A stretch of 64,000 bases of DNA from a virus, in IMG/VR virus record IMGVR_UViG_3300030430_004661, positions 10,512 to 74,511 of that record; one strand, 5' to 3'. Below are positions 5,912 through 20,607 of this stretch, in pieces. The notes beneath the pieces were generated by a model. It was not told where the DNA came from. It saw only the letters and a list, made by a program, of their open reading frames with translations, and did not search any database. The position numbers were made by a program, and so were the translations under genes. Every line of letters begins with the position of its first letter. Position 1 is the stretch's first letter.

Positions 5912-5936
5912 ATGAAATTTTAGAATATATTTATAC

Positions 5937-5965
5937 TTGACAACCGATTGGTTGTGTGTTATATT
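5937..5965 (+). promoter_or_regulatory. Sigma70-type promoter with extended -10
   Basis: TTGACA-17bp-TATATT with TGn; GGAG RBS before ATG 5989. Confidence 0.8.
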
Positions 5966-5988
5966 ACTAATATAACGCTGGAGACATT

Positions 5989-6660
5989 ATGAAGTGGATT
6001 TCAAATTCAATTAACGAATCACAAATCTTAAAGGATCATTACACATTGCATAGTATAGATATAATAGTAAAAGATACATTACCTGACAACGTCGATATAG
6101 ACTTTGTCATAAAATATATCACTACCAGAATACCAAAGTTTTTGATAACTGGGGTTGATATTATATATGTTGGACAATTTGATCATCTTATTGAGAAGGG
6201 TGTGAACGCCTTGTATGAGGACGGAGCAGTATATATAACAAATGATCAAGATGACGAAATGGATATGATTGATGATATAGTGCATGAGCTAGCACATGCT
6301 GTCGAGGTCAATTATTTTGATGTTATCTATGGTGATGGCACTTTAGAAGCAGAATTTTTAAGAAAGCGTAATCAATTACATGACATATTGAAATTAAGCA
6401 ATTTAAAGCCACCTCCGCAACTTTTAATTAATGTGTCGTTTGATCAAGTTATCGATGATTATCTGTACAAAGAAGTTGGGTACACAGCCCTTTGGAATTA
6501 CGTTGTAGGAATATTTCCTTCACCTTACGCAGCGACAAGCTTAAGAGAATATTTTGCTCGTGGCTTTGAAGAATTTTTTATTGGAAACAGAAAAAAGTTG
6601 ACATATTTTAATAGTGTGTTATATTCTAAGTTACAAGATCTTGTAGAATTGGAGGAATAA
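5989..6660 (+). CDS. Putative zinc metallopeptidase-like protein
   Basis: HELAH (HExxH) plus downstream YAATSLREYFARGFE, a third-ligand-type motif of zincin/gluzincin-like folds. Confidence 0.6.
   Translation: MKWISNSINESQILKDHYTLHSIDIIVKDTLPDNVDIDFVIKYITTRIPKFLITGVDIIYVGQFDHLIEKGVNALYEDGAVYITNDQDDEMDMIDDIVHELAHAVEVNYFDVIYGDGTLEAEFLRKRNQLHDILKLSNLKPPPQLLINVSFDQVIDDYLYKEVGYTALWNYVVGIFPSPYAATSLREYFARGFEEFFIGNRKKLTYFNSVLYSKLQDLVELEE
6598..6625 (+). promoter_or_regulatory. Sigma70-type promoter inside the upstream CDS
   Basis: TTGACA-16bp-TATATT with the same GTGTTATA context as the other promoters; GGAGG RBS before 6660. Confidence 0.6.
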
Positions 6661-7436
6661 TGCATATATCTTTTTCAGAACTTAAAATGTGGGCAGAGTG
6701 TCCATGGAAGCACCGGCTTGTCTATATTGATAAAATAAAGAAGTTTGTCGGAAATGAATTTACAGCCTTTGGATCAGCGCTTCACACTCTTTGTGAGCAT
6801 GCGATTGTTGATAAGATCCAAGACGATGAGTATGATGAATTTTTCGAACACAGCTTTGAAAAAGAAATCGCAAAACTACTCGTACGAGGAGCTGAGTTTG
6901 ATCAAAAACTCGTTGATGACATGCTCGATCAAGCAAAAATCCTGTCACCACAAATCATACCAGAGGTTGTAAAACACTTTGATAATTATGAAGTAGTCTC
7001 CGTAGAAGAAATGTTATACGAAGAGATTAAAGACTTTCAGACAGATCATAAGTTCAAAGGCTATATAGACCTAGTTCTCAAAACACCAGACGGTAAATAT
7101 CACATTATTGATTGGAAAACATGCTCTTGGGGTTGGGATGCTAAAAAGAAGTCTGACAAGCTCATAACATACCAATTGACACTGTATAAAAAGTTTTTCT
7201 GTCAAAAACATGATATAGATCCATCGCTTGTTGAAACTCATTTTGCACTACTAAAAAGAACTGCCAAGAAAAATAACGTTGAGATATTTCGTGTGACATC
7301 AGGACCTAGAAAAACAACAAATGCAGTTGATTTATTAACAAGAGCAGTTAAATCAATAAAAAGTGGCCTTAAAATAAAAAATAGAAACTCTTGCACATTC
7401 TGTGAATTTAAGAACACAACTGACTGTCCAAGATAA
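6660..7436 (+). CDS. PD-(D/E)XK (Cas4/RecB-like) exonuclease with probable Fe-S cluster
   Basis: ISFSEL..WAECP, FGSALH, GYIDLV...IIDWKT, YQLTLY, C-terminal CTFC(x7)C. Confidence 0.88.
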   Translation: MHISFSELKMWAECPWKHRLVYIDKIKKFVGNEFTAFGSALHTLCEHAIVDKIQDDEYDEFFEHSFEKEIAKLLVRGAEFDQKLVDDMLDQAKILSPQIIPEVVKHFDNYEVVSVEEMLYEEIKDFQTDHKFKGYIDLVLKTPDGKYHIIDWKTCSWGWDAKKKSDKLITYQLTLYKKFFCQKHDIDPSLVETHFALLKRTAKKNNVEIFRVTSGPRKTTNAVDLLTRAVKSIKSGLKIKNRNSCTFCEFKNTTDCPR

Positions 7437-7460
7437 AATTAATTTTTTTTATTTTTTTTC

Positions 7461-7489
7461 TTGACAAAGTAATTTAATCGTGTTATAAT
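7461..7489 (+). promoter_or_regulatory. Consensus sigma70 promoter upstream of the glycosylation locus
   Basis: TTGACA-17bp-TATAAT with TGn and an AT-rich upstream tract. Confidence 0.88.
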
Positions 7490-7513
7490 ATATTAAACAA
7501 CACGAGGTACGAC

Positions 7514-8773
7514 TTGTCAAAGAAAAAAATATTAACACTATCTGATCATCCTCTCTCGCCGTCCGGTGTCGGAACCCAAACAAGATATATTTGTGAGGCT
7601 CTTCTTGATACCGGGCGGTATTCTATTATTAGTTTGGGAGGCGCGATCAAACATAAGGATTACAGACCAGTTCAGCTAGAACAATATGGTGATGACTGGA
7701 GGATAATCCCTATAGATGGATACGGCACTCAAGAAATGATCCGATCTATTTTAAAAACCGAAAAACCAGATGTCATTTGGTTCATGACCGATCCACGATT
7801 CTGGGGCTGGCTATGGGAGATTGAAAATGAAATTAGGCCACTTTGCCCAATGGTGTATTACCATGTATGGGACAACTACCCTTATCCTTTTTACAACAGG
7901 AATGCTTATTTGTCTAACGACCACATTGTCACTATTTCTAAAGTTACTGACGATATAGTAAGAAATGTAGCACCAGAAGTAAAATGTACATATTTACCAC
8001 ATGCAGTAGATTTAAACTTCTTTAAACCGATGACCGATGAAGAAATTAAATCAATTAGAGATACAACGTTACCAGAACAAGATCGTGATAAAGTAATTTT
8101 CTTCTGGAACAATAGAAATGCACGTCGAAAACAATCTGGTACGCTCATATGGTGGTTCAAAGAGTGGTTAGATAAAAAAGATTTGCACGACAAAGCACAG
8201 CTCATAATGCACACTGAACCTAAAGACCCTCATGGACAGGACCTAGAGCACATAATTAATCATCTTGGGTTGGACCAACGCCAAGTCCTCCTATCAACTC
8301 AGAAAGTACCACCTGAGCATCTAGCATCAATGTATAATTTTGTTGATTGTACAATTAATGTTTCAGATGCTGAGGGATTTGGTTTGGCCACTCTTGAATC
8401 GCTATCCTGCGGCACGCCTATTATCGCCACGATGACAGGAGGTCTTCAGGAGCAAATCACAAACGGTTCTGATTGGTACGGCGTTGGTCTCTTCCCTACT
8501 TCAAAATCAGTCATTGGATCTCAAGATGTTCCGTATATCTATGAAGATAGAATAGATAAAGCGCAGTTTCATTCTGCACTGACCAAGATCTATTCCATGG
8601 GTCATGCAGCCCGAAGAGAAATGGGATTGCAAGGTAGAGATCATGTGATGAAAAACTACAATTTTATCGACTTCAAATCTAAGTGGATCGATCTTATGGA
8701 CAGCGTGCTAGAAAGTGGATCTCATGAAACACGAACAGGATATAACGGAATCAGATTTAAGGAGGTCGCATGA
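7514..8773 (+). CDS. Glycosyltransferase, GT-B/GT4 family
   Basis: SGVGTQ N-terminal motif, NRNARRK, EGFGLATLESLSCGTPII (EX7E); TTG start with GAGG RBS. Confidence 0.9.
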   Translation: MSKKKILTLSDHPLSPSGVGTQTRYICEALLDTGRYSIISLGGAIKHKDYRPVQLEQYGDDWRIIPIDGYGTQEMIRSILKTEKPDVIWFMTDPRFWGWLWEIENEIRPLCPMVYYHVWDNYPYPFYNRNAYLSNDHIVTISKVTDDIVRNVAPEVKCTYLPHAVDLNFFKPMTDEEIKSIRDTTLPEQDRDKVIFFWNNRNARRKQSGTLIWWFKEWLDKKDLHDKAQLIMHTEPKDPHGQDLEHIINHLGLDQRQVLLSTQKVPPEHLASMYNFVDCTINVSDAEGFGLATLESLSCGTPIIATMTGGLQEQITNGSDWYGVGLFPTSKSVIGSQDVPYIYEDRIDKAQFHSALTKIYSMGHAARREMGLQGRDHVMKNYNFIDFKSKWIDLMDSVLESGSHETRTGYNGIRFKEVA

Positions 8774-9990
8774 AAACCAACATATTTGTAAAAGGCCCTG
8801 TATTGTCACAAAGTGGCTATGGCGAACAAGCTCGCTTTGCATTACGTGCATTGCGAAGCAGAGAAGATCTATTTGATATATACATACTACCTATCAACTG
8901 GGGAAAAACAGGCTGGATATGGGAAAATAGTGAATTTAGATCTTGGATGGATGAAAGAATAGCAAAAACACAAATTGCAATAAATAACAAATCTCTAAAA
9001 GCAGACGTATCGTTACAAATAACTATACCAAATGAATTTGAAAAAATATGCCCGGTAAACATTGGGTATACCGCTGGTATAGAAGCAACCAAATGCTCAC
9101 CGCAATGGTTACCTAAAGGTAACGAGATGGACAAAATTATTGTTGTTTCTAGCCATGCTAAAAACAGTTATAAAAATACAGTAGCAGAGGCAATAAACAA
9201 TGACACTGGTGAAAAGTTTGAGTACAAGCTGAACACAGATATTAAAGTTGTTGGAGAATGCACACCAAGACACGAACCAGAAGCAATCGAAGGTTTTGAG
9301 TTGGATTATGACAAGAATTTTCTGATGGTATCCCAGCTCGGACCACGAAAAAACCTTGAAAACTCAATATGTTGGTTTGTAGAAGAGTTTATCGATAAAA
9401 AAGTCGGATTGGTATTGAAGACTAATTTCAAGAACAATTCAATATCAGACTTTAGCACGATCTCAAATCACCTCTCTACTTTACTAGAGAAATATAAAGA
9501 TAGAAAATGTAAGGTCTACTTGCTTCACGGAGATCTCAAACCATCACAGATGACTTGGCTATACCAGCATAAAAATATTAACGCTCTTATTAATGCATCT
9601 CACGGTGAAGGTTTTGGCTTGCCATTGTTTGAAGCAGCAAGAGAAGGTATGCCCGTTGTTACGCTTGGCTGGTCTGGACAGTTAGACTTTTTACACCATG
9701 ATGGCGATGACTATTTCCAATCAGTTGATTACACCTTACAGCCAATCCAACCACAAGCAGTGTGGCCGGGAGTTTTAGAAAAAGAGGCTATGTGGGCATT
9801 TGCCGATCAAGGCAGCTACAAGATGACCTTAAGAAAAACACTTAGAGACTATAGAAAAGTTAAACAAAAAGCACAGAAGTTAAAGACTATCATTGATCAA
9901 AAATTTAGCGAAGAAAAACTATACGCTGATTTCATAGATGCCTTACAGATTGCACAACCTGAAGAAGAAACACAGGTGGTCATACTGTAA
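8770..9990 (+). CDS. Glycosyltransferase, GT-B/GT4 family
   Basis: SGYGEQAR, PRKN, HGEGFGLPLFEAA. Confidence 0.9.
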   Translation: MKTNIFVKGPVLSQSGYGEQARFALRALRSREDLFDIYILPINWGKTGWIWENSEFRSWMDERIAKTQIAINNKSLKADVSLQITIPNEFEKICPVNIGYTAGIEATKCSPQWLPKGNEMDKIIVVSSHAKNSYKNTVAEAINNDTGEKFEYKLNTDIKVVGECTPRHEPEAIEGFELDYDKNFLMVSQLGPRKNLENSICWFVEEFIDKKVGLVLKTNFKNNSISDFSTISNHLSTLLEKYKDRKCKVYLLHGDLKPSQMTWLYQHKNINALINASHGEGFGLPLFEAAREGMPVVTLGWSGQLDFLHHDGDDYFQSVDYTLQPIQPQAVWPGVLEKEAMWAFADQGSYKMTLRKTLRDYRKVKQKAQKLKTIIDQKFSEEKLYADFIDALQIAQPEEETQVVIL

Positions 9991-11960
9991 TGAAAGTTAT
10001 TTTTTCTAGTCAATTCAGAGACAGTAGTGGTTATGCATCCGCAGCAAGATCTTATCTAAAGTCAATAGACACAGTTATAGAAAACTATGATTATGACTTT
10101 AAGATACTATCAATTTCTGTGGAAGACCACAGTGCTGTTTCTGATTACTATGAACAATTAATTTCAAAGTACGAGATAGATTTAGATTCAATTGATGAGT
10201 ATATCAAAGAAGATTATCTACTCATATGGCACCAACCAGCAGGAATGGTGATGTATGGAGACTCTAACAAAAGTAATGATCCTGAATGGATAGCGTTCAA
10301 AAAGCTGTTGGATAACTCAACCAAGAATGTGAACATGACAGTTTGGGAGTCTGATAAGGTTCCAGATATGTGGTCTGCAATACACAAGAAGTATAAAACA
10401 ACCTCAGTCATAGTCCCTTGTCAACAAAACAAAGACATTTTTGAAACATCAGGTATCTCCGCTCACCTGCTACCTCACGTGATTGAAGATCCAATGAAAA
10501 ATCCCAAAGAGATAAATGGGTTTCCTATAAATCTAGACGACATGTTTACTGTGTTTTCTATGTCACAGTGGATTAATCGAAAGGGTTATGATGCTTTAGT
10601 AAAGGCATTCTCTATGGAGTTTGACAACGTTCCAGACGCTATCATGATAATAAAAACTTACGTGACAGCAATGAACACAAAGCAGTTTCCGTTCAACAAG
10701 CAAGCAGAACATGTGCAAAGTGAGATCGTCGCAGTCAAGAGGACAGTTTTAAAACACGGTCGACCATCTAATGCTAAGATAGCAGCGATCTGCAATGTTC
10801 TTCCATATGAAAACATATCGTGGCTATATTCAAAGTCTGATGTCTTTGCGTTAGCGACAAGAGGTGAGGGCTTCGGTTTGACCATATCGGAAGCTATCAT
10901 GCATGAGAAACCTGTTGTGGTGTCATCTGCTGGCGGACATTTGGATTATATAAATCCAGATGACGCCTTTTTGTTTAATGGCTACAAACATCCATACATA
11001 GGGGATCCAACTTATGATTACGATATGAATTGGTTTGAGCCCGACATACTTGATATAAGAAAAAAATTAAGAACATGTTATAATCTATGGAAGTCGAATA
11101 GAGAAAAACTTGCTCAAATGGGCAAAAATCTGAAGCAACATATCTTGTCTAATGGATACGACTATGAATCAATTGGAAACAAGTTTTTTTCCATAATATC
11201 AAAAGAAATCAACTATAGAAGCGATAATTTGAAAGATATGATAAGGTCTTTTTCATCTGATAGAAAAAAGTTAGACCTTTTGAAAGACAAATACAAAGAT
11301 CAAGACTGTTACATCTTAACATGTGGCCCATCTCTTAGCAACTATTCTGAGGAGTTTTTAAACGAAGCACTTTCAGATAAACTAGTGTTCGCAGTTAAGC
11401 AAGCATACAATCAGGCACCAGATATTGTTGATTTTCACTTTTTTAACTCAAACAACTTTGAAGTATATAACTATAAGGAAGATAGGCCCATAGTGTTTGC
11501 AAGCTCGGCTGAGAGTGAGATAGCCATGATCTATCACATTTGGTCCAACAACCAAGAGTATGACATTTTTAATTTCATACCAGATGATAGAGACATGTCC
11601 AAGTCGATTTGCAAAAGTTTGAACTTTGAAAAGCATACATATGAAAACACAATCGAAAGACCATGGGGGCCCGGTATTATGACTGAAATGGTGTTCTACT
11701 TAGCGGTACACATGGGCGTAAAGAACATATACACCATAGGTTGGGACTTAGAAAAGCCCGGATCCACAAAGTCAAACCATTTTTACAAGGATAGATCAGT
11801 AATAAGACCTGCTGATGATATGCCTAAAGATGAAATAAATAATAACATAAACATGTCGAAGCACTTAAACGAGTGGTTAAAAACAAAAGGAATTAATTTA
11901 TATGTAGCAAATGAAGGGTCTTATGTACACAATTCAATACCTAGGAGAATATTAAAATGA
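9990..11960 (+). CDS. Bifunctional GT4 plus sialyltransferase-like (Maf/DUF115/GT42-type) protein
   Basis: SGYASAAR, RKGYD, RGEGFGLTISEA in the first ~405 aa; C-terminal YILTCGPSL...VFAVKQ...AVHMGVKNIYTIGWD. Confidence 0.8.
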   Translation: MKVIFSSQFRDSSGYASAARSYLKSIDTVIENYDYDFKILSISVEDHSAVSDYYEQLISKYEIDLDSIDEYIKEDYLLIWHQPAGMVMYGDSNKSNDPEWIAFKKLLDNSTKNVNMTVWESDKVPDMWSAIHKKYKTTSVIVPCQQNKDIFETSGISAHLLPHVIEDPMKNPKEINGFPINLDDMFTVFSMSQWINRKGYDALVKAFSMEFDNVPDAIMIIKTYVTAMNTKQFPFNKQAEHVQSEIVAVKRTVLKHGRPSNAKIAAICNVLPYENISWLYSKSDVFALATRGEGFGLTISEAIMHEKPVVVSSAGGHLDYINPDDAFLFNGYKHPYIGDPTYDYDMNWFEPDILDIRKKLRTCYNLWKSNREKLAQMGKNLKQHILSNGYDYESIGNKFFSIISKEINYRSDNLKDMIRSFSSDRKKLDLLKDKYKDQDCYILTCGPSLSNYSEEFLNEALSDKLVFAVKQAYNQAPDIVDFHFFNSNNFEVYNYKEDRPIVFASSAESEIAMIYHIWSNNQEYDIFNFIPDDRDMSKSICKSLNFEKHTYENTIERPWGPGIMTEMVFYLAVHMGVKNIYTIGWDLEKPGSTKSNHFYKDRSVIRPADDMPKDEINNNINMSKHLNEWLKTKGINLYVANEGSYVHNSIPRRILK

Positions 11961-12781
11961 AAACATACGTTATAGCGGAAATAGGAATAAACCATAATGG
12001 TTCGTTAGACATCGCCAAGAAGCTGATTGATGTAGCGGCTGTCTCAGGATGTGATGCAGTAAAGTTCCAGAAAAGAAATCCCGATGTCTGTGTACCTGAG
12101 CACCAAAAATCAGTCATGCGTGAAACTCCGTGGGGTACCATGACCTACTTGGACTATAAATATAAGATGGAGTTCGGCAAAGAAGAGTATGATGAGATCG
12201 ATAGATACTGTAAACAGAAGGGTATCGAATGGTCTGCTTCCCCATGGGATCTCGACAGCTTGAAGTTTTTGATGAATTATGATTTACCATGGCTTAAAAT
12301 ACCATCTGCCATGATAACCAACGAGGAATTAATGACTGCGTGTGCTGCAACTGGTAAAAAAGTTATCTTTTCCACTGGTATGTCAACTTATGACGAGATA
12401 GACCAAGCAGTAGAATGGCTCAATGGCTCTGATACTTTAATGCTTCACTGTAATTCTAGTTACCCGGCGCCGTTAGAAGATTTAAATCTAAAATGCATAC
12501 AGACTCTCAAGAAAAGATATGGCTGTGAAGTAGGCTATAGTGGTCATGAGTTTAGGCTTGGCACATCTGTAGCAGCAATATATTTAGGTGCAACTTGTAT
12601 CGAGAGACATATAACTTTAGATAGAACAATGTGGGGTTCTGACCACCTATCTTCAGTCGAACCTCAAGGGTTGATCAAGATGGTGAGGGGTATTAGAGAG
12701 CTGGAAGTAGCACTTGGAGACGGTGTGAAAAGGGTTACAAGCGGCGAGCTTGCACCAAGAAAGAAACTTAGAGGTTACTAG
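11957..12781 (+). CDS. neuB: Nonulosonic acid synthase, NeuB family, lacking the C-terminal SAF domain
   Basis: IAEIGINHNG, AVKFQKR, LKIPS, STGMS, HCNSSYP, GYSGHE, ERHITL, GSDH. Confidence 0.95.
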   Translation: MKTYVIAEIGINHNGSLDIAKKLIDVAAVSGCDAVKFQKRNPDVCVPEHQKSVMRETPWGTMTYLDYKYKMEFGKEEYDEIDRYCKQKGIEWSASPWDLDSLKFLMNYDLPWLKIPSAMITNEELMTACAATGKKVIFSTGMSTYDEIDQAVEWLNGSDTLMLHCNSSYPAPLEDLNLKCIQTLKKRYGCEVGYSGHEFRLGTSVAAIYLGATCIERHITLDRTMWGSDHLSSVEPQGLIKMVRGIRELEVALGDGVKRVTSGELAPRKKLRGY

Positions 12782-13620
12782 TGTTCCAAGAACAATGGAT
12801 CTGCCCAGAGAGACTGGGTGGATCAAAAGCAATAGATATGTATAATCTATATTTGAACAATAGAAGAGACCAGCTTCCATATGCTGATCTAAAGTATTCT
12901 CATGTTGTTGACAAAGTTCACGAAGAAGGATATGCGATAGTTCAATCCTGTGTCGATGTAGATCTCATAAATGAGATATTGACGAACACGGAAAGCATTT
13001 TCTTAGACCCAAGACTTTTAAAAACAAATAATGAAAAATATAAAACTGTTAGGCACCCATTTATTGACTGCCCACAAATATTGAATCTTGCCCTATCAGA
13101 GACAATTTTCAATGTTGTTAGTCAATTTTATGGGTGCGTTCCAGCTTTAACGGGCGGAAAAATACACCGATCCTACGCCTTCACAGGACAAAAAACAGGT
13201 ACACATTTATATCATATAGATAAAAACAGTCTATGGTTTATAAAAGCTTTTATCTACTTGAATGATGTAGGTATAGATGGCGGGCCATTTACATATGTTA
13301 AGGGAAGCCACAAAGATAGATTTGCTGGTTGGAGAGACAATTATAGATATAGTGACGAACAAATCACAACTTATTACGGTAAAGATCGCATAAAGCACCT
13401 AACTGCTTCAGTTGGCGATGTAATATTTGCAAACACTGTAGGGATGCATAAGGCACTTACTATGGATAAAGGACACAGAACAATGGTGACTTTGAATTTT
13501 TGTGTTCACCCAGAAGACTGGTCACCAGAGTCTAAGTTTATGTTTATGCACAAAAATGATTACGAAAGGATCAGTGCTAACAAAACAAGGCTTTTTGATT
13601 ATATAAGGAAAACATCATGA
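12781..13620 (+). CDS. PhyH-like Fe(II)/2-oxoglutarate dioxygenase
   Basis: EEGYAIV, HID (HxD), IYLNDV...GGPFTYVKGSH, GDVIF...MHK...R. Confidence 0.8.
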   Translation: MFQEQWICPERLGGSKAIDMYNLYLNNRRDQLPYADLKYSHVVDKVHEEGYAIVQSCVDVDLINEILTNTESIFLDPRLLKTNNEKYKTVRHPFIDCPQILNLALSETIFNVVSQFYGCVPALTGGKIHRSYAFTGQKTGTHLYHIDKNSLWFIKAFIYLNDVGIDGGPFTYVKGSHKDRFAGWRDNYRYSDEQITTYYGKDRIKHLTASVGDVIFANTVGMHKALTMDKGHRTMVTLNFCVHPEDWSPESKFMFMHKNDYERISANKTRLFDYIRKTS

Positions 13621-14414
13621 ACAAATATAGAAAAAACATAGATCACGGTGGGTGGTTTAGTTTTAACGCAACGCAAGAAGAATGGAAGTCAAACTACGCT
13701 GAAAAAATGTTAGATTACTTTTTTACCTCGTCGATTATAGAGAGGAGCTTTGGCGGATACACAATAACAGATGAACTCTTGATTACAAATAACCTAAACT
13801 TTTCTGGTGTCAAAGAGAGGAGTGTTCTTGTCATAGGAGCAGGTCCATCTTCATCCTTGTTAACGCAAGAGTTACTTGATTCCTATGACTATGTTTTTAC
13901 ATGCAATCACTTTTTTAAAAACGATTTTTTGAATGGCACCAAAGTCAACCTAGTCTTGATTGGCGACGAAGTCAGTCTGAGATCACCACACTTTCTAAAA
14001 TATATCGAGAAACACTCTCCAATTATAGGATTTGAACACTCCGCCAGAAGAACCATGCTTGAAGTCTTAGATTTTAAAAGATCTTATCCTAGAAGCTTTA
14101 TTTATCTGACTAGGTACTTTTCAAGGTTGGGATATGTTGCTAGAGCATGTGTTCTTGCAAGGTGTATGGGTGCCTCAAAAGTTGATTTTGTGGGTATGGA
14201 TGGTTTCAAGAAGAGGGTCCATCTTTTTCAAAAAGGCAAAAAACCACCATCCTTTAACGATCCAGACAAGTTTAGAAAACAAGCAAAAATATTTTATGAA
14301 TATATGTTGAATGATTTACGTATAACTAAGGATAATTTTAATAACCTTGGAGAAAATCACGAATCCAGCATATACACCGGAATCATGAATGAGGTAAAAA
14401 ATGAAACAAATTGA
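13617..14414 (+). CDS. Sialyltransferase-like protein (CstII/GT42- or Maf-like)
   Basis: VLVIGAGPSS...VFTCNHFF...ARCMGASKVDFVGMDG matches the GxGPS / CN.F / G..I.L.G.D pattern; flanked by neuB and neuA. Confidence 0.7.
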   Translation: MNKYRKNIDHGGWFSFNATQEEWKSNYAEKMLDYFFTSSIIERSFGGYTITDELLITNNLNFSGVKERSVLVIGAGPSSSLLTQELLDSYDYVFTCNHFFKNDFLNGTKVNLVLIGDEVSLRSPHFLKYIEKHSPIIGFEHSARRTMLEVLDFKRSYPRSFIYLTRYFSRLGYVARACVLARCMGASKVDFVGMDGFKKRVHLFQKGKKPPSFNDPDKFRKQAKIFYEYMLNDLRITKDNFNNLGENHESSIYTGIMNEVKNETN

Positions 14415-15075
14415 AGAGATAGCGGTAATAATACAAGCGAGACTTAACTCACAAAGAATACCTAAAAAAATGATCAAGCCATTTTCAGGGACAACTTTAA
14501 CAGATATATTTCTAGAGAAAGTTAAAAAATGTAGAAGTTTTCCAATGTCTAATTTTTATTTGTCTGTCTACGAAGATGAGTTAGTTGATATTGGGATCAA
14601 ACACGATGTCAACATATTCAAAAGGTCAAAGAAATCCGCCTTTTCGGAAGGTACCCCGATGACTCTTATGTATGAGTGGCACAACAAACTACCTTTTAAA
14701 TACTGTGTTCTAATAAATGCCTGTGTTCCTTTTTTAAAGCCTGAGACTATAGATGATTTCATTAGGCTATACTGTCTGTCAGACCATGATGGCATGTTTG
14801 CAGTTATGGAAAAGAAGAATTATTTTTGGAACCAAAACGCAGATCTTCTAACACCATTAACCGAAGATGTTATGAACACAAAAACAGTTCAGAAAACTTA
14901 CGAAGCAGCACATTGCCTTTATGCTGGTAAGATGAGTAGCATAAAAGACGGTGTGTGGATGGGTGACTTCATGAAAAATGAAGTAAAACTTTTCCCAATT
15001 CAGGAACGTGAGGCATTTGATATCGATCACCCATGGCAGTTTGATCTGTGTGAAAAACTATGGGAGTCTAAATGA
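14401..15075 (+). CDS. neuA: CMP-nonulosonic acid synthetase (acylneuraminate cytidylyltransferase)
   Basis: IIQARLNSQRIPKKMIKPF, NACVPF, FDIDHPWQF. Confidence 0.88.
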   Translation: MKQIEEIAVIIQARLNSQRIPKKMIKPFSGTTLTDIFLEKVKKCRSFPMSNFYLSVYEDELVDIGIKHDVNIFKRSKKSAFSEGTPMTLMYEWHNKLPFKYCVLINACVPFLKPETIDDFIRLYCLSDHDGMFAVMEKKNYFWNQNADLLTPLTEDVMNTKTVQKTYEAAHCLYAGKMSSIKDGVWMGDFMKNEVKLFPIQEREAFDIDHPWQFDLCEKLWESK

Positions 15076-15839
15076 TATTTTATTCTGAGCATTACGAAAA
15101 ATGTAAACATGATCAACCTAGCCTGTACGACTATGTGTTTGAGATGAACCCTTTTATCCTTGATAAAGGAGACGTTAGAACATTGGCAAACACAGTTGAT
15201 GGCATGATATCATATAACAATGGGTGTCTAGAAGACCAATGGTCGATAAAACTTGAAAACATATCGTTTATACCACAGCTGGAGTCAATATGCAAACAAT
15301 TAGCAATGCAGATAGAAAGTAGGTACTTTGGATCTTACTGTAAATTTGAGTTTATACATTGCTATAGAAACAAAACAACAGCCACAAAAGAGTCTTCATG
15401 GAAATGGCACTATGATGATTGTCCTAGAGAATTTATGAAAGTTGGACTTTACCTGAATGATGTTAATACCGACAACGGATGTATGCAAATTTTAAACTCT
15501 ATGGACGGACCCAAGGAAGTTAAGTCCTTCAGAACACACCCAAACGCAGTAAAAGGTGATCCTCCACCAGTTTATCCAAAATCAAGAATACCGGATGCAG
15601 AGATAAGCAGACTTTTATCGAATGGGTATAGAGAACACAACGTCGTAGGTAAATCAGGAACAAACTTTCTTTTCACACCAAACATAATACACAGAGCAAC
15701 GATTCCAAAAGAAGGTGTCACCCCAAGAGATGTCATAATATTTTTTGTAAGACCGAGTCTGAAGAAGATAACAAACTATACTAGTGTAGCAAAATATTTT
15801 AGATCTGGTAAAAACGTGAAGAGGTATGAATTAGATTGA
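15072..15839 (+). CDS. PhyH-like Fe(II)/2-oxoglutarate dioxygenase
   Basis: WHYD (HxD), LYLNDVNTDNGC, IIHRA...RD. Confidence 0.75.
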   Translation: MIFYSEHYEKCKHDQPSLYDYVFEMNPFILDKGDVRTLANTVDGMISYNNGCLEDQWSIKLENISFIPQLESICKQLAMQIESRYFGSYCKFEFIHCYRNKTTATKESSWKWHYDDCPREFMKVGLYLNDVNTDNGCMQILNSMDGPKEVKSFRTHPNAVKGDPPPVYPKSRIPDAEISRLLSNGYREHNVVGKSGTNFLFTPNIIHRATIPKEGVTPRDVIIFFVRPSLKKITNYTSVAKYFRSGKNVKRYELD

Positions 15840-16696
15840 TGTTTAGAAGTAGAAAAATAAATAAAAATCAATGGATCGACACCAAAACAAACACTGTTTT
15901 TGAAACTGGTTTGATTAAAGGTAGGCACGGTAAGAAATCAAGTTTTCTGGACACCCCAGATAGTTTTCTTGGTGGACACTATGGAGAGTCGTATTACTTA
16001 GATTTCTACGACAGGATTCAACACGATGTGGATGATTACACAACCAGCAACGAGGTTATCTATAAACGCCATGATAATAAACTAGCGGGTAAGAAGGTTC
16101 TGATTGTTGGTGGCGGACCTTCGTCTAATGACCTCAAATGGCAACAACACTACGACTACGTGATTACTAGTAATAATTATTACAAAAAGTTTCCTGATAA
16201 TAAACCATACATAATAAACTTTACACCTTACATGGATCTAAGCGATTCAAAGTTGCTGTCTTTTTTAGATTCTGGAGATTTTTATATTGGCTTTGAAGCG
16301 GATGCTTTTTTAAAAAACCATGAGATCTCTATGATCCATACGTTTTGGCCAAAGTATAGAGATAGAATAATTCTGTTCCACACCAGATATTCATCAGCAA
16401 TTGGTGTCTCAACCCGTCAAGCAGTCTTTGCGATATTGATGGGAGCTGATGAAGTTCACCTATGTGGCATGGACCTATTCAAAGACAAGGACAGTGTTAG
16501 ACACTCCTTTGAGGATAACAAGGGTCTTCCACGATGGCGTCTCGCAGGGGGAGAAACCCTTCAACAACAATTAGTAGTTTCTTTTTGGGAATACGTTAAG
16601 CAGATCGGCGCTACAAACGACTGTAGAGTTATCAACCTAGCGAGACACTTCGATTACAATTGCCTAGGTCAACCATCAATAGGAGAACTATCATGA
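15836..16696 (+). CDS. Sialyltransferase-like protein (CstII/GT42- or Maf-like), paralog of 13617..14414
   Basis: VLIVGGGPSS...VITSNNYY...TRYSS.IG...AILMGADEVHLCGMD. Confidence 0.7.
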   Translation: MMFRSRKINKNQWIDTKTNTVFETGLIKGRHGKKSSFLDTPDSFLGGHYGESYYLDFYDRIQHDVDDYTTSNEVIYKRHDNKLAGKKVLIVGGGPSSNDLKWQQHYDYVITSNNYYKKFPDNKPYIINFTPYMDLSDSKLLSFLDSGDFYIGFEADAFLKNHEISMIHTFWPKYRDRIILFHTRYSSAIGVSTRQAVFAILMGADEVHLCGMDLFKDKDSVRHSFEDNKGLPRWRLAGGETLQQQLVVSFWEYVKQIGATNDCRVINLARHFDYNCLGQPSIGELS

Positions 16697-17487
16697 AGAT
16701 AGCACTGTGTTACTCAGGTCAAATTGGTGCTTTTCATAAAGCATTACGCAGCCAAAGAGCTTCGTTTCTGACTAACGACATGGATATCTACGTTTACACT
16801 TCAGACGTAGTGTCACAGAAAAACAATACTATAGTTAACTTGCCGACTTCATCGGACGTACACGAATATCTGATAGCCGGAAAAGGTTGGAGAAAAAACA
16901 CCAACACTTATGGTATAGTGTATAAGATCCCATCAGATTACATCGTGAAATCACTAAAACCAATAGAAAGACAAATAGTTCACATGAAAGTCCAAAAAGA
17001 GGATCTATATGAAACACTGAATGATTGGGACATGTCAAAATGGAAATGGCTAAGAAAAAGACAGCTCTGGAAAATGCACCAGTGCAATGAGATGGTAAAC
17101 AACAGTGGTAATGACTATGACATAGTGGTTAGATCGAGATTTGAGTTTGGTCCAAATGTAAAGATAGATATACAGAAAATTGTATCAAGCACCGATAACT
17201 TGGATAATAAAATTTTTATGTTTGGTGGTTGGAACTGTGTTCCTCCAATGGTTTTTATGGATGAATTTATTTGTGATGGGTTTGCCTTTGGAAAACCTGA
17301 AGTTATGAATAAGTTCACATCTCTCTATTTAAATGAAGATCCATACCCGTATGATCCGAAATATAAAGAGTGTTGGGAAAAGTTTGGTGATAACGTTGAA
17401 TATCAATTAAAAACTCACCTTGATAAACACAACATTGAGATTGTGTATATTGGTAATAAAAGAAACATGTATCATTTATGGAGATAA
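16693..17487 (+). CDS. Putative glycosyltransferase-like protein
   Basis: MKIALCYSGQ...YDIVVRSRFE...DGFAFG pattern typical of viral glycan-locus proteins; AGGAG RBS and ATGA overlap. Confidence 0.55.
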   Translation: MKIALCYSGQIGAFHKALRSQRASFLTNDMDIYVYTSDVVSQKNNTIVNLPTSSDVHEYLIAGKGWRKNTNTYGIVYKIPSDYIVKSLKPIERQIVHMKVQKEDLYETLNDWDMSKWKWLRKRQLWKMHQCNEMVNNSGNDYDIVVRSRFEFGPNVKIDIQKIVSSTDNLDNKIFMFGGWNCVPPMVFMDEFICDGFAFGKPEVMNKFTSLYLNEDPYPYDPKYKECWEKFGDNVEYQLKTHLDKHNIEIVYIGNKRNMYHLWR

Positions 17488-17488
17488 A

Positions 17489-18115
17489 GTGAAAAAAGTA
17501 TTTATTGACTGTGGTAGTTACGACGGCTGTAGCGTGAGAAAATTCTCTGATCTGTACGACAAAAAAGCAGATTATCAGTATCACTGTTTTGAGGGCAATC
17601 CGCTATTGGCCAACTATCACCCTGTGAACGAAAGGTGTGTGTTTCACAACACCATAGTACTAGATACCGAAGATGAGGTTACATTTTATGTACATTCCAC
17701 TACAGGAGGGAGCACAATCAGTCAACAGAAAAACCAGAGGTATAAAAACAAAGATGAATCAAAGTATGGCGATACGGAGGAGATAGTTCTAAGACCAATA
17801 AGACTATCAAGCTATATAAGCGACAACTTTAGCCCTGATGATAATATAATTTTAAAAATGGATATTGAAGGTGCTGAATATTGCGTCCTTAGAGACCTTA
17901 TCAAATGCGACGTATTGTGGTACATTGATAAGATCTATATCGAATGGCACATAAATGATAGAACAGAAGAGCCTCAACCCGAAGAGTTTATATCAGAGTT
18001 CGTTGAAATATGTGATGAAAACGATATATGTTTGGATACTTCTTGGGACTCGATGCATGAGCCGTACATGAAAGAAGAAAGAAATTCTGAATACAAAAAA
18101 AAGAGGAAAAAATGA
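17489..18115 (+). CDS. FkbM-family SAM-dependent methyltransferase
   Basis: VFIDCGSYDG, CFEGNP, ILKMDIEGAEY, IEWH; GTG start after GGAG. Confidence 0.88.
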   Translation: MKKVFIDCGSYDGCSVRKFSDLYDKKADYQYHCFEGNPLLANYHPVNERCVFHNTIVLDTEDEVTFYVHSTTGGSTISQQKNQRYKNKDESKYGDTEEIVLRPIRLSSYISDNFSPDDNIILKMDIEGAEYCVLRDLIKCDVLWYIDKIYIEWHINDRTEEPQPEEFISEFVEICDENDICLDTSWDSMHEPYMKEERNSEYKKKRKK

Positions 18116-18420
18116 TAATTTATGTAGACATAGATGAAACAATATGTGTTTCACCACCAAACCGAGATTATTCACAAGCAGTTCCAATAGCAAACCACAT
18201 CAGTAAAATCAATCAACTTTATGATTCTGGTAACACGATTGTATATTGGACTGCTAGAGGCACTGGATCTGGTATTGACTGGAGAGAAGTGACAGAAAGA
18301 CAGTTTGAAACTTGGGGGGTAAAGTATCATGATCTTAAGTTTGGCAAACCAATATATGACTTGTTTGTTGATGATAAAAATATAAATTGTGAGAGGTTTT
18401 TTCATAATGAAAATATATGA
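18112..18420 (+). CDS. Small capless HAD-family phosphatase
   Basis: YVDIDETIC (DxD), WTARG, KP..DLFVDDK. Confidence 0.85.
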   Translation: MIIYVDIDETICVSPPNRDYSQAVPIANHISKINQLYDSGNTIVYWTARGTGSGIDWREVTERQFETWGVKYHDLKFGKPIYDLFVDDKNINCERFFHNENI

Positions 18421-19147
18421 TAAAATAAACCAAGAACGTAAAGATATAATAAACAAAACAAAGCATACGATTAGCGATGTTCCTAGGGCGCAAAAAGAAG
18501 TAGCTGAGTTGCTTCCTGATCTTTTTGAGAAGAAAAGGTTTTATAAAATGCATCCTAGGCCAAATGATCACCCACAATCCAGAGAGTATCAGTACTATGA
18601 ATATTGTATTAGTGCTGTTGAGATTGATGGCTTGTGGTTAGAATTTGGTGTCTACAAAGGTGCTAGTAGTAAGTATATTAGCAAGATAAAGAACGAATTG
18701 CACCCCGAATCAGATAAGGGATTTCATGGGTTTGATTCATTTGAAGGTTTACCAGAAGATTGGACTGGAAATGGATCTCCAAAGGGTAAGTTTAAAACAA
18801 AAGTTCCTTCCGTTCCCGGAGTGACCTTTCACAAAGGATGGTTTAGTGACACCATACCAAAATTTTTAACATCATACAAAGGTCAATGTGCATTTATACA
18901 CATCGATTGTGACATATATTCATCAACAGTGGATATTCTAGAAAACTTGTCACCAAGAATAGTACCCGGAACTGTTATTCTTTTTGATGAGCTTACTGGA
19001 TATGACGCTTGGAAAGATCATGAATATAAAGCGTTTATTGAATTTGTTGAAAAATATGATGTTGAATATGAATGGCTAGCATATGTGGCAAATGCAGGCC
19101 AAGCAGCATGTAAAATAACTAAAATAGGAGTACATAATGAATTATAA
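18407..19147 (+). CDS. TylF/MycF-like sugar O-methyltransferase
   Basis: LEFGVYKG, GFDSFEGLP, KGWFSDT, IHIDCDIYSST, ILFDE. Confidence 0.85.
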   Translation: MKIYDKINQERKDIINKTKHTISDVPRAQKEVAELLPDLFEKKRFYKMHPRPNDHPQSREYQYYEYCISAVEIDGLWLEFGVYKGASSKYISKIKNELHPESDKGFHGFDSFEGLPEDWTGNGSPKGKFKTKVPSVPGVTFHKGWFSDTIPKFLTSYKGQCAFIHIDCDIYSSTVDILENLSPRIVPGTVILFDELTGYDAWKDHEYKAFIEFVEKYDVEYEWLAYVANAGQAACKITKIGVHNEL

Positions 19148-19346
19148 ATTTTCAGACCAAGCCATTGGCGCATTGATGATGGCGCTACAAAAATCATTAC
19201 TAGAGCAAACCGACATAGTTCCGGTGATCAAAAACTTTGATGTTCAGATAGATGATACAAATCATTTGATAGTGGTTAACCCACCACCAGTAAAGGCACC
19301 TAAAATAGAAGCAAAGCCTAAAATACTTTTACCGGATGAAGATTAA
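19137..19346 (+). CDS. Hypothetical protein
   Basis: 69 aa with AGGAG RBS, coupled to neighbours. Confidence 0.7.
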   Translation: MNYKFSDQAIGALMMALQKSLLEQTDIVPVIKNFDVQIDDTNHLIVVNPPPVKAPKIEAKPKILLPDED

Positions 19347-19597
19347 TGCCTAGATACTTTTATGAATGCTCAAAGTGTGGATCACAATTTAAAACTGTGC
19401 ATGGCATGAATGAAACACAAGATCATTGTGAGGTCTGTTTTTCTGATGCTGGAACACTTCGAAGAATTCCACAGCTTACCACCACCCTCAAGCCTCTATC
19501 TAAAGAGGCACAGAGAGTTCGGGATGCTATTGAGGATAATAAAAATATTCTAAAAGAAATGGATAAAGAAGCGAGGAATACAAGTTATGACGATTAG
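19346..19597 (+). CDS. FmdB-like zinc-ribbon protein
   Basis: MPRYFYECSKCG..F...HCEVC. Confidence 0.8.
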   Translation: MPRYFYECSKCGSQFKTVHGMNETQDHCEVCFSDAGTLRRIPQLTTTLKPLSKEAQRVRDAIEDNKNILKEMDKEARNTSYDD

Positions 19598-19982
19598 CAC
19601 TGGATTAAGTTTAGCCCTAGGAATATCTATAATATTAAACATTTTTACTGTTTGGTACATTAGAGCACTATTGGGTCGTTTTAATTGGATTAGTCAAAAT
19701 ATTAACGATCTTGTGCAAATAATTGGTGTATTTAGGGCACATTTGCAAGACGTGCGAAAGTTAGAACAGTTCTATGGAGATCAAGAAATAAAAAATCTTG
19801 CTCTGCATACAGCTTCGCTTATGGATGTGTTACAGGATTATGAAGACGTAGTCTTTATAACAGAACCAATAGAATTTGTAGAGGATGAATCAGATACTCA
19901 ACAACAGGAAGAACAAAATGCCGAGGAAGAAGTCCAAGAAAAACATGTACTTTACGCAGGTACACGAAAACGCAATAATTGA
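19587..19982 (+). CDS. Membrane-anchored hypothetical protein
   Basis: N-terminal hydrophobic helix LSLALGISIILNIFTVWYI followed by a helical acidic region. Confidence 0.7.
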   Translation: MTISTGLSLALGISIILNIFTVWYIRALLGRFNWISQNINDLVQIIGVFRAHLQDVRKLEQFYGDQEIKNLALHTASLMDVLQDYEDVVFITEPIEFVEDESDTQQQEEQNAEEEVQEKHVLYAGTRKRNN

Positions 19983-20607
19983 ATATTGTCAACCAAGCAC
20001 AACTTATAACAGAAGGTGCGAGCTTTACGAACACCTGATTCAACCAGCCTTCAACGAGATGGTTGACAAGATAGTATTTACGTATCGCTTTACATCTTTA
20101 CCAAATATTGATGAATTAAGGCAAGACTGTAAGGTCTGGCTTACAACCATATTGGCCAAGTATGATCCTAATCGAGGTTCAAAGGCCTTTTCGTATTTTA
20201 GTGTCATAACAAAAAACTGGTTTATACATCAGGTTAAAAAGACCGCAAAAAGAGCTAGTCGAGAGGTTGAATACGAAAAAGTAGGTAAGGAACTCAACAG
20301 CGCACAGAATATATCAAATGACCCTGTCATGGAAAATATATTACAAAAAGAGTTTTGGATATCATTTTACGATGAGCTTGGATCGTGGGACTCATCAAAG
20401 ATGTCAGAAAATGAACTTTTAGTTTACAACGCAATACGTGAGTTGTTTGCCTCTGTGGACGATCTTGATATGCTAAATAAGAAGGCTGTGTATCTGTATA
20501 TGAGAGAGATTACTGGACTCAATACAAAACAAATAGTATCACAGCTTAACAAGATGAGAAAGAGGTACAGAAGTTTTAAACGCAACTGGGACAATGGTAA
20601 AATTTAA
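19918..20607 (+). CDS. Phage RNA polymerase sigma factor (gp55-like, probably late)
   Basis: Region-2-like KYDPNRGSKAFSYFSVITKNWF; located just upstream of the structural module. Confidence 0.75.
   Translation: MPRKKSKKNMYFTQVHENAIIEYCQPSTTYNRRCELYEHLIQPAFNEMVDKIVFTYRFTSLPNIDELRQDCKVWLTTILAKYDPNRGSKAFSYFSVITKNWFIHQVKKTAKRASREVEYEKVGKELNSAQNISNDPVMENILQKEFWISFYDELGSWDSSKMSENELLVYNAIRELFASVDDLDMLNKKAVYLYMREITGLNTKQIVSQLNKMRKRYRSFKRNWDNGKI

Follow-up and report, generated by a model that had tools for sequence, protein, structure and literature searches.

The stretch of DNA analysed here, called the window throughout, comprises 64,000 nucleotides (nt) from a virus (bases 10512–74511 of the 74.5-kb IMG/VR virus record IMGVR_UViG_3300030430_004661, 41% complete according to CheckV), and its + strand carries all of its long open reading frames (ORFs). 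Between positions 7461 and 19147 on that strand lies an island of about 11.6 kb, organised as one tightly coupled operon, the genes of which are predicted to make, activate, transfer and tailor a nonulosonic (sialic-type) acid. Nonulosonic acids are surface sugars of animals and bacteria and govern recognition, charge, and interactions with the immune system and with phages. The island encodes a NeuB-family synthase, a NeuA-like cytidine monophosphate (CMP)-sugar synthetase, a small HAD phosphatase, two PhyH-type dioxygenases, FkbM- and TylF-type methyltransferases, and seven glycosyltransferase (GT) domains: three of family GT4, three GT42/Maf-like (one of these weakly supported) and one of GT-A fold. 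Comparison with related viral loci shows, as the main new result, that a deeply conserved core of two GT4 enzymes is combined with a fast-changing outer layer, in which the nonulosonate genes are one of several alternative cassettes.

The operon and its predicted enzymes

Every gene that an earlier note on this DNA had listed was recovered on the + strand and in its assigned place, and two further claims of that note, a single coupled operon behind a consensus sigma-70 promoter and a lack of transmembrane segments, were borne out. Once three starts had been corrected (to ATG 16693, GTG 17489 and ATG 18407), the ends of neighbouring genes overlapped by 1–14 nt. The sigma-70-type promoter (7461–7489, + strand; TTGACA-17 nt-TATAAT with a TG extension) matches at 12/12 positions and is the best site of the region. 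It is kept in the nearest relative only (locus L006), the remaining loci scoring at background level, and was for that reason dropped as evidence for timing across the clade. A search for the T4 late-promoter motif TATAAATA gave neither enrichment nor placement ahead of genes. No membrane segment was found in any operon protein, the highest Kyte-Doolittle hydropathy over 19 residues being 1.45.

The NeuB-family nonulosonate synthase (274 amino acids (aa); 11957–12781, + strand) matches PF03102 across the entire profile (positions 1–241 of 241, E 4e-79, 265.9 bits against a cut-off of 22.1), but misses equivalog level with both TIGR03569 (positions 1–273 of 329, 273 bits, cut-off 400) and TIGR03586 (197 bits, cut-off 340), and its C-terminal SAF (antifreeze-like) domain is absent. 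The enzyme is catalytically typical yet ends right after the barrel, which corrects the earlier note. Homologues are 272–283 aa long in 80/83 cases measured, and the nearest solved structure, 6ncs (290 aa, E 2e-38), is likewise short. NeuB is under strong purifying selection (68–88% identity over 80 loci), which argues for a specific product. A 203-kb relative with terminal repeats has two adjacent NeuB-family genes (G009:C1:52006–54122), one matching at E 2e-64 and a divergent one at E 5.5e-17, and locus L089 has two divergent copies too.

The NeuA-like cytidylyltransferase (14401–15075, + strand) exceeds the PF02348 cut-off (E 8e-11, 42.5 bits against 22.6) and falls far under those of the PseF and KdsB models, so the sugar is not specified by sequence. 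Of the 82 loci compared (80 from IMG/VR and two GenBank phage records), 73 have it, and NeuB, a Maf-like gene and NeuA co-occur in 71–82. The phosphatase, a minimal cap-less HAD protein of 102 aa (18112–18420, + strand), keeps all four motifs intact (the conserved DxDxT, as D6xD8xT10; T47; K79; D83 and D88). Its profile matches 9iqw, a ‘capsule biosynthesis protein’ (E 4e-20), and 1xpj (E 1e-6), which places it in the EcbF/BcbF–9iqw–1xpj group; with a score of 22.9 against TIGR01689 (cut-off 162) it is a relative rather than an equivalog. Even two phage records that are very distant, the cyanophage-like AG-345-L05 and LR756508, have the HAD gene next to NeuB or close by. Strict coupling of the two genes was rejected, one 92%-complete relative having the HAD gene and no NeuB. 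AG-345-L05 (Marine virus, Kyanoviridae; L003:5196–15127), a T4-like cyanophage record, has a NeuB and mini-HAD cluster of its own, which also holds a DegT aminotransferase, a short-chain dehydrogenase/reductase (SDR), a cytidylyltransferase, a 4,6-dehydratase-like epimerase, a methyltransferase and GT2/TOD1-like transferases.

Two free-standing proteins with a GxGPS motif, of 265 aa (13617–14414, + strand; profile matches to sialyltransferases) and 286 aa (15836–16696, + strand), are probable GT42/Maf-like (PF01973 superfamily) nonulosonate transferases. They are paralogues (BLASTP E 2e-17, 28% identity) sharing GGGPS, GMD and His motifs, and GxGPS, GxD and His are common to all three GT42/Maf-like domains of the window. 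A 14-member profile of the 265-aa protein matched the sialyltransferases CstI, CstII and, over the whole domain, 9c08 from Pasteurella with E-values between 6e-6 and 5e-5, and the MptE kinase at E 0.14. HMMER aligns its GxGPS, CN[HQ]F and GxD motifs to their counterparts in CstI/CstII, a GxD[FY] segment being present; G76, P77, N97, G193 and D195 are invariant in the 14 homologues, as very nearly is H202, which is not equated with the catalytic His188. Pfam CST-I gives 16.7 bits on the window protein (cut-off 25) and matches 3/14 homologues (best E 1.5e-6), and PF01973 (DUF115/MptE-like) gives 21–27.6 bits on the window proteins (cut-off 34.6) and matches 12/14 (best E 9e-9). Structure failed to discriminate between kinase and transferase: an AlphaFold2 (AF2) model of the 265-aa protein (pLDDT 91.7) gave VIA Z scores of 13.2 to MptE, 11.4 to CstI, 10.2 to mammalian ST3Gal and 10.0 to Maf (5mu5), all in the range 10–13, and because these four share one fold, structure does not decide. 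The preference of the profile for sialyltransferases, the motifs, and linkage to NeuB and NeuA in 71/82 loci therefore lead us to read both proteins as GT42/Maf-superfamily nonulosonate transferases. They do not belong to the Maf family proper, the members of which have about 600 aa with N- and C-terminal flanking domains: at 265 and 286 aa they consist essentially of the catalytic domain alone, and flagellar genes, flagellin included, were found neither in the island nor in its flanks.

The remaining transferase domains are of GT-B or GT-A type. GT4-1 (7514–8773, + strand; Pfam Glycos_transf_1 E 5e-12, GT4-conflict 37.6 bits), which is the island's conserved core gene and codes for a GT-B enzyme, has as its best solved relative the chlorovirus NY-2A protein B736L (3oy2; profile match over the full length, E 3e-18), and its NCBIfam neighbours include transferases for glycolipids, lipopolysaccharide (LPS) and exopolysaccharide (EPS). 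GT4-2, the second conserved core enzyme (8770–9990, + strand; GT4-conflict 27.9 bits), overlaps it. A fusion protein of 656 aa follows (9990–11960, + strand), with a GT4 domain at about residues 1–405 (Glycos_transf_1 E 2e-11; B736L E 1e-10) and a probable GT42/Maf-like domain at about 426–656. The latter retains CGPS, GxD and His, and matches the Pfam MptE-like family (E 3e-6; 27.6 bits, under the cut-off) and a Maf-like profile (hhalign E 0.008), with no match among Protein Data Bank (PDB) profiles; in locus L164 the two domains are separate genes. What the earlier note had called a further GT-like protein (264 aa; 16693–17487, + strand) proved to be a GT-A enzyme by fold (AF2 pLDDT 84.5), GT6-like and of a DUF7796-like family: Foldseek placed it with alpha-1,3-GalT, ABO GTA/GTB and BoGT6a (E 2e-6 to 1e-5, TM 0.40–0.45), whereas a search of the PDB by sequence found no match. 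Its Atlas clusters are mostly viral, with DUF7796 on about 11% of members.

Four tailoring enzymes complete the operon. The first PhyH-type Fe(II)/2-oxoglutarate dioxygenase (12781–13620, + strand; PF05721 33.1 bits against a cut-off of 22) has invariant H145, D147, H223 and R233, the HxD...H...R residues for iron and 2-oxoglutarate, and among solved structures it comes closest to the oxidase/hydroxylase 4xc9/4xcb (E 3e-7), which we take to represent the HygX/EvdO group that oxidises sugars in orthosomycin antibiotics; by analogy, such kinship would fit a role in sugar tailoring. The second (15072–15839, + strand) scores weakly with PF05721 on its own (18 bits) but is recognised as a paralogue of the first by hhalign (98.9% probability, E 1.8e-17), and H113, D115, H207 and R219 are invariant. 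An FkbM-family methyltransferase (17489–18115, + strand; PF05050 E 1e-11, TIGR01444 50 bits, above cut-off) had been called from 17420, its probable start being GTG 17489 behind a GGAG ribosome-binding site, and a TylF-type, macrocin O-methyltransferase-like enzyme (18407–19147, + strand; PF05711 E 4e-14, PF13578 E 2e-12), called from 18389, probably starts at ATG 18407.

Taken together, these matches support the chain proposed in the earlier note, from NeuB and NeuA to a CMP-nonulosonate, GT42/Maf-like transfer, and tailoring by oxygenases and methyltransferases, and we consider it highly probable that a nonulosonate is made and transferred.

A slot in an abundant lineage of marine phages

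The island occupies a fixed slot, consisting of a PD-(D/E)XK nuclease, GT4-1, GT4-2, a variable cassette and a sigma-like gene. The left border in NeuB-anchored loci runs PIN-PhoH, unknown gene, nuclease, then GT4-1 and GT4-2; the nuclease (6660–7436, + strand; PF12705 E 1.5e-19) is syntenic with GT4-1 both in relatives from IMG/VR and in Flavobacterium phage immuto, which is in culture. The right border (19137–20607, + strand) consists of ORFs for a 69-aa protein, a zinc-ribbon protein and a one-pass membrane protein together with the sigma-like gene, and is kept in sigma-anchored loci whatever the cassette. Assignment of the sigma-like gene is weak (phrog_234 E 6e-4, TIGR02937 E 5e-4); relatives align from residue 22 of the ORF, and the true start is probably near 19948.

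Between these borders the contents vary. GT4-2 was found in 51/82 loci and in a minimal island (L132), which covers the entire slot and has two GT4 genes only, with nothing between GT4-2 and the right border. The locus whose sigma gene comes closest (82% identity; L087, IMGVR_UViG_3300025133_000048, 5351–9274) has a phosphonate cassette in the slot, made up of a GT2 enzyme, a 4,6-dehydratase, a fusion of phosphoenolpyruvate (PEP) mutase with a cytidylyltransferase, a split thiamine pyrophosphate (TPP) decarboxylase and an iron alcohol dehydrogenase, which suggests a phage-made phosphonoglycan. In L155 the slot holds a 6-deoxyhexose set together with genes for a GT2 enzyme, a UDP-GlcNAc 2-epimerase and a methyltransferase. 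The order nuclease, GT4-1 (32% identity), GT4-2 (gp180, 30.5%) recurs in phage immuto, where an amino-sugar cassette comes next and the nonulosonate cassette is lacking. GT4-1 on its own occurs in Rhodothermus phage RM378, in Microcystis phage Mel-JY01 and in LR756508, an uncultured phage of 484 kb. RM378 p014 could not be confirmed as GT4-2.

The source phage is an uncultured, distant, marine T4-like myovirus. Downstream of the island the window holds baseplate-wedge and giant fibre-like genes; complete relatives (161–204 kb) encode a gp23-type major capsid protein, and it is because the closest cultured counterparts of this protein are those of immuto, Mel-JY01 and RM378 that the phage is placed as a distant T4-like one. 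The lineage is very abundant in ocean metagenomes: NeuB proteins 68–88% identical to that of the window occur on at least 219 IMG/VR contigs, and a large protein collection gave thousands of NeuB matches at E 1e-20 or better, the 120 matches listed being 79–90% identical and several coming from Tara samples. Among 50,697 phage records, megablast with the whole locus found no match, and tblastn with NeuB found a copy of about 49% identity in two uncultured phage records only, the third match being a Moritella viscosa sequence of 29% identity. No tRNA genes were found in the 64-kb window, hence no hint of the host. Contamination or chimeric assembly was rejected, since dozens of viral contigs show the island genes in this order and GC content is uniform with the rest of the window. 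The relatives' capsid protein (612–642 aa; G001:C1:120664–122253, L086:382–2301) carries about 180 residues inserted between Pfam profile positions 85 and 116, an insertion that splits the match, is a possible surface domain, and is seen in LR756508 as well.

To the left of the island, a PIN domain–PhoH-like ATPase fusion (4565–5911; PIN_4 E 7e-29, PhoH E 6e-53) is 53–73% identical in relatives. For a conserved 223-aa protein between PhoH and the nuclease (5989–6660), Pfam gives no more than a match under the cut-off (17.9 bits, cut-off 27.4; E 0.0026) to the family of anthrax lethal factor domains, which probably reflects chance or a distant metalloprotease-like fold. Near-consensus sigma-70-type promoters (11/12, with TG) at 5937–5965 and 6598–6625, the one preceding this unknown gene and the other lying within or before the nuclease gene, suggest early transcription of the region upstream of the island.

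Predicted pathway, acceptor and alternative readings

What NeuB uses as substrate is constrained by what the phages do not encode. Neither NeuC (PF02350, UDP-GlcNAc 2-epimerase) nor DegT aminotransferases (PF01041, PseC/LegC-type) were found in three relatives at least 94% complete or in a fourth of 89%; the phage thus seems unable to make the usual precursors of Neu5Ac, pseudaminic or legionaminic acid, and the hexose must therefore come from the host. The pathway described as self-contained in the earlier note would be so only if NeuB takes a common host metabolite such as mannose-6-phosphate. The pairing of the HAD protein with NeuB suggests a phosphorylated substrate of that kind and a Kdn-9-phosphate intermediate, and we give a Kdn/9-phosphate-type route about an even chance.

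Gene content, intact catalytic motifs, folds, synteny and the swapping of cassettes are what the sequences show; which nonulosonate is made, in what sequence of reactions and on what acceptor, we infer from them. In a first, conserved layer, GT4-1 and GT4-2 would add the first hexoses to an acceptor of the phage's own, most likely a virion protein. The second layer would be the cassette in the swappable slot: SAF-less NeuB would join PEP to a host-supplied hexose, probably mannose-6-phosphate, giving a Kdn-type 9-phosphate from which the small HAD protein takes off the phosphate, the NeuA-like enzyme would convert the product to a CMP-nonulosonate, and two or three GT42/Maf-like domains would transfer it, fusion to the third GT4 domain coupling a hexose step to a nonulosonate step. 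One more sugar might be added by the GT-A enzyme, with the two dioxygenases oxidising or hydroxylating sugar residues and the FkbM and TylF enzymes O-methylating them. The enzymes being soluble, they presumably act in the cytoplasm. Such a two-layered, phage-encoded assembly line, with a virion protein as its most likely acceptor, is in our judgement about as likely as not.

A virion protein is the acceptor we favour, with confidence just short of even, followed by the host envelope; DNA appears unlikely. Indirect support for an acceptor intrinsic to the phage comes from conservation of GT4-1 in LR756508 and in phages of Flavobacterium, Rhodothermus and Microcystis, hosts from three phyla, as well as from nuclease–GT4-1–GT4-2 synteny in immuto and the minimal island with two GT4 genes. 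Chloroviruses glycosylate their own capsid with soluble enzymes of their own, and B736L as the best solved relative would mark GT4-1 as a virus-type enzyme, which fits a virion acceptor, again indirectly; so does the diversity of cassettes at one site (phosphonate, 6-deoxyhexose, amino-sugar), as expected for an exposed glycan. Genes for Bac_transf (PF02397), WecA/MraY-type (PF00953) and Wzx (PF01943) proteins were absent from six relatives (completeness 94% or more in four), so that the lack of a flippase and of an undecaprenyl-type transferase, which the earlier note had claimed, extends to the whole genomes of complete relatives; the lack of membrane segments, priming transferase and flippase speaks against a lipid-linked surface pathway of the phage's own. 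A structural protein of 3477 aa encoded in the window (32753–43186) has 20% Ser/Thr overall and 55% in a 40-residue stretch near residue 2850, a candidate O-glycosylation region.

Several points weigh against this reading. No glycosylated virion protein has been observed, the acceptor being an inferred one, and GT4 enzymes can use host lipid-linked acceptors without membrane segments of their own. The operon promoter is of early sigma-70 type, not late, and the island adjoins DNA-metabolism genes (PhoH, nuclease); the earlier note had argued from the abutting late sigma and tail module, and whereas the adjacency holds, the operon is driven by its early-type promoter and not by that module. By structure alone the GxGPS protein lies nearest an archaeal pterin kinase (Methanocaldococcus HPPK, 8sd5; Foldseek rank 1, E 8e-5), and the third GT42/Maf-like domain, at the C-terminus of the fusion, is weakly supported. 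The 9-phosphate role is not secure, because the HAD homologue occurs in the 92%-complete relative that has no NeuB and, in AG-345-L05, shares with NeuB a cluster that also contains genes for an aminotransferase and a dehydratase; its group has also been assigned to arabinose-5-phosphate in RB69-type loci (PMC13326640). DNA of immuto, analysed by liquid chromatography with ultraviolet and mass-spectrometric detection (LC-UV-MS), contained only dA, dC, dT and fdPreQ1 and no glycosylated nucleoside (bioRxiv 10.1101/2023.04.13.536721), which lends the virion reading indirect support; that support is limited by a study design not meant for rare or digestion-resistant glycosylated bases and by the lack of the nonulosonate cassette in immuto.

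The structural neighbour 8sd5 (Z 13.2), together with a Pfam match, at scores under the cut-off, to a family named MptE-like, is what speaks for the GxGPS proteins being MptE-like kinases or other non-transferases, in which case CMP-nonulosonate would still be made and only the GT4 and GT-A enzymes would transfer sugars. We hold this to be very improbable. The earlier note had named such kinases as the test of its reading, and the answer is divided: structure favours MptE (13.2 against 11.4 for CstI), but sequence prefers sialyltransferases by four orders of magnitude (6e-6 against 0.14), 9c08 over the full domain included, GxGPS and CN[HQ]F align with CstI/CstII, GxGPS, GxD and a His recur in all three window domains, 71/82 loci have the gene linked with NeuB and NeuA, and there is no pterin gene within the island. 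Remodelling of the host envelope, with soluble phage enzymes at the inner face of the membrane acting on host lipid-linked intermediates or glycoproteins and the host's carrier and exporters moving the product, is a weightier competitor though still rather unlikely; it may alter the cell surface during infection, for example by excluding other phages or blocking re-adsorption of progeny. The early sigma-70 promoter, the serotype-like variation of cassettes in the slot, a NeuB substrate that must be host-derived, the glycolipid and LPS/EPS transferases near GT4-1 in NCBIfam, and the general knowledge that GT4 and GT42 enzymes such as CstII use lipid-linked acceptors without membrane segments are all in keeping with it. 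They have to be set against a GT4-1 that is kept in phages of Bacteroidota, Rhodothermus and cyanobacteria despite the differing surface glycans of these hosts, and whose best solved relative is viral and not a bacterial envelope enzyme, and against complete relatives without priming transferase, flippase or polymerase.

In hypermodification of DNA, GT4 enzymes would glycosylate a modified base and the cassette would add the nonulosonate, shielding the genome from host nucleases. Phage GT-B enzymes resembling BshA/MshA do place glycans, Kdo among them, on 5-hydroxymethylcytosine (5hmC; bioRxiv 10.1101/2023.12.21.572611), and the arabinosylation loci of RB69 and DLP3 combine a GT4-like enzyme with a 1xpj-like HAD protein (PMC13326640), 1xpj being matched by the window HAD; the match of GT4-1 to Pfam GT4-conflict, early-type expression and the adjoining nuclease and PhoH genes point the same way. 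We nevertheless think this improbable, for the enzymes that would prepare the base were not found: ThyA-family (PF00303), Tet_JBP (PF12851; searched without a positive control) and C5-methylase (PF00145) genes were absent from three relatives (G001, 100% complete; G002, 100%; G004, 94%), as were TGT/DpdA genes from complete relatives, RM378 has GT4-1 and no ThyA homologue was found in it, and immuto, with its homologous nuclease–GT4-1–GT4-2 core, yielded the four nucleosides above. In LR756508.1 (W03:302656–306691) a ThyA-family gene (thymidylate synthase or hydroxymethylase) lies about 2 kb upstream of the GT4-1 homologue. We attach similarly little probability to an acceptor of some other kind, or none that is fixed: the fusion might polymerise a free or protein-primed acidic hexose–nonulosonate polysaccharide in the style of a capsule polymerase, a host cytoplasmic protein might be modified, or CMP-sugar synthesis might drain precursors. 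No acceptor has been identified, and the fusion has the GT4–sialyltransferase-like architecture of the Neisseria meningitidis W/Y capsule polymerases; against this, L164 encodes the two domains as separate genes, a set of seven transferase domains with tailoring enzymes points to an oligosaccharide of defined structure more than to a polymer of repeats, and the purifying selection on NeuB argues for a specific product.

Relation to known systems

The favoured reading, glycosylation of a virion protein, joins components of known kinds: NeuB/NeuA chemistry, GT42/Maf-type transfer, virus glycosylation as in giant viruses and mycobacteriophages, and the variable sugar islands of marine myoviruses. 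New are their combination in a phage, a SAF-less NeuB with a mini-HAD, short single-domain transferases, and a fixed core-plus-cassette architecture in a very abundant lineage. A literature search, with most subscription journals outside its scope, retrieved no description of a phage-encoded nonulosonate pathway or of a virus making and attaching its own nonulosonate, and nothing relevant on PDB entry 9IQW, RM378 glycosyltransferases or Mel-JY01.

Our boldest suggestion, which we put forward tentatively and would sooner doubt than believe, is of a virus-made glycan coat with ‘serotypes’: the GT4 pair would prime a virion protein and the slot would supply nonulosonate, phosphonate, 6-deoxyhexose or amino-sugar, a phage counterpart of O-antigen and capsule diversity that would include, for the first time, a virion glycan both sialic-acid-like (probably Kdn-type) and virus-encoded, made by way of a SAF-less NeuB and a 9-phosphate route. 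Were the glycan on the particle, variable sugar coats of marine phages could influence their adsorption, grazing and decay and how readily they stick to organic matter, ecology would have to reckon with phage ‘serotypes’ as a variable, and compact soluble enzymes for glycoengineering would be at hand (the SAF-less NeuB, the 102-aa phosphatase and the 265-aa sialyltransferase-like proteins). Because immuto is cultured and shares the conserved core, the question of the acceptor is directly testable.

Established nonulosonate systems include NeuB/NeuA with GT42 enzymes (Campylobacter CstI/CstII), Maf-dependent flagellin islands and the Maf-domain Pse/Leg transferases of Tannerella. Like these bacterial systems the island has a NeuB-family synthase, a CMP-activating cytidylyltransferase, transferases of PF01973/GT42 fold, methyl and other tailoring, and cytoplasmic steps; unlike them it lies in a lytic T4-like phage, with a NeuB that is SAF-less, no NeuC, PseB/C/H/G or LegB/C/H/G steps, single-domain transferases of 265–286 aa without Maf flanks, and no flagellin or lipooligosaccharide (LOS) context. 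A Kdn-9-phosphate or Neu5Ac-9-phosphate route is reportedly followed by animal NANS and NANP and by the Kdn-9-phosphate synthase and phosphatase of Bacteroides thetaiotaomicron. The island shares with it the set of NeuB-family synthase, small HAD and CMP synthetase, no 2-epimerase being needed if mannose-6-phosphate is the substrate, but its HAD belongs with 9iqw/1xpj/EcbF-BcbF rather than KdsC/YrbI, and that family occurs also in a NeuB-less relative.

Viruses that glycosylate their virions include chloroviruses (PBCV-1 A064R, NY-2A B736L), Megavirinae with clade-specific sugar clusters, and mycobacteriophages with capsid or tail glycosylation. There, as in the island, soluble virus-encoded transferases and methyltransferases work in the cytoplasm and sugar sets differ among relatives, and GT4-1 resembles B736L itself (E 3e-18); nonulosonates, however, are not known from these systems, and the island is known from genes alone, behind an early-type promoter and outside the structural operon. 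Glycan hypermodification of phage DNA, as in the glucosyl-hydroxymethylcytosine of T4, the arabinosyl-5-hydroxycytosine of RB69 and DLP3, and TET-linked clusters adding Kdo or heptose, offers parallels in its enzymes (BshA/MshA-like GT-B, a cytidylyltransferase, a 1xpj-like HAD), in being expressed early and in sugars that vary from phage to phage, and differs in that an enzyme for a hydroxylated base was not found in complete relatives and that immuto DNA had no glycosylated nucleoside. From the variable LPS/glycan islands that T4-like cyanophages of the sea carry, and from the O-antigen or capsule loci of bacteria, the island is set apart by its different phage lineage, with a capsid protein nearest those of immuto, Mel-JY01 and RM378, by its fixed slot and core GT4 pair, and by its lack of Wzx/Wzy and ABC export; what they have in common with it is a conserved flank beside swappable sugar cassettes, and AG-345-L05, with a NeuB cluster of its own, is a case in point.

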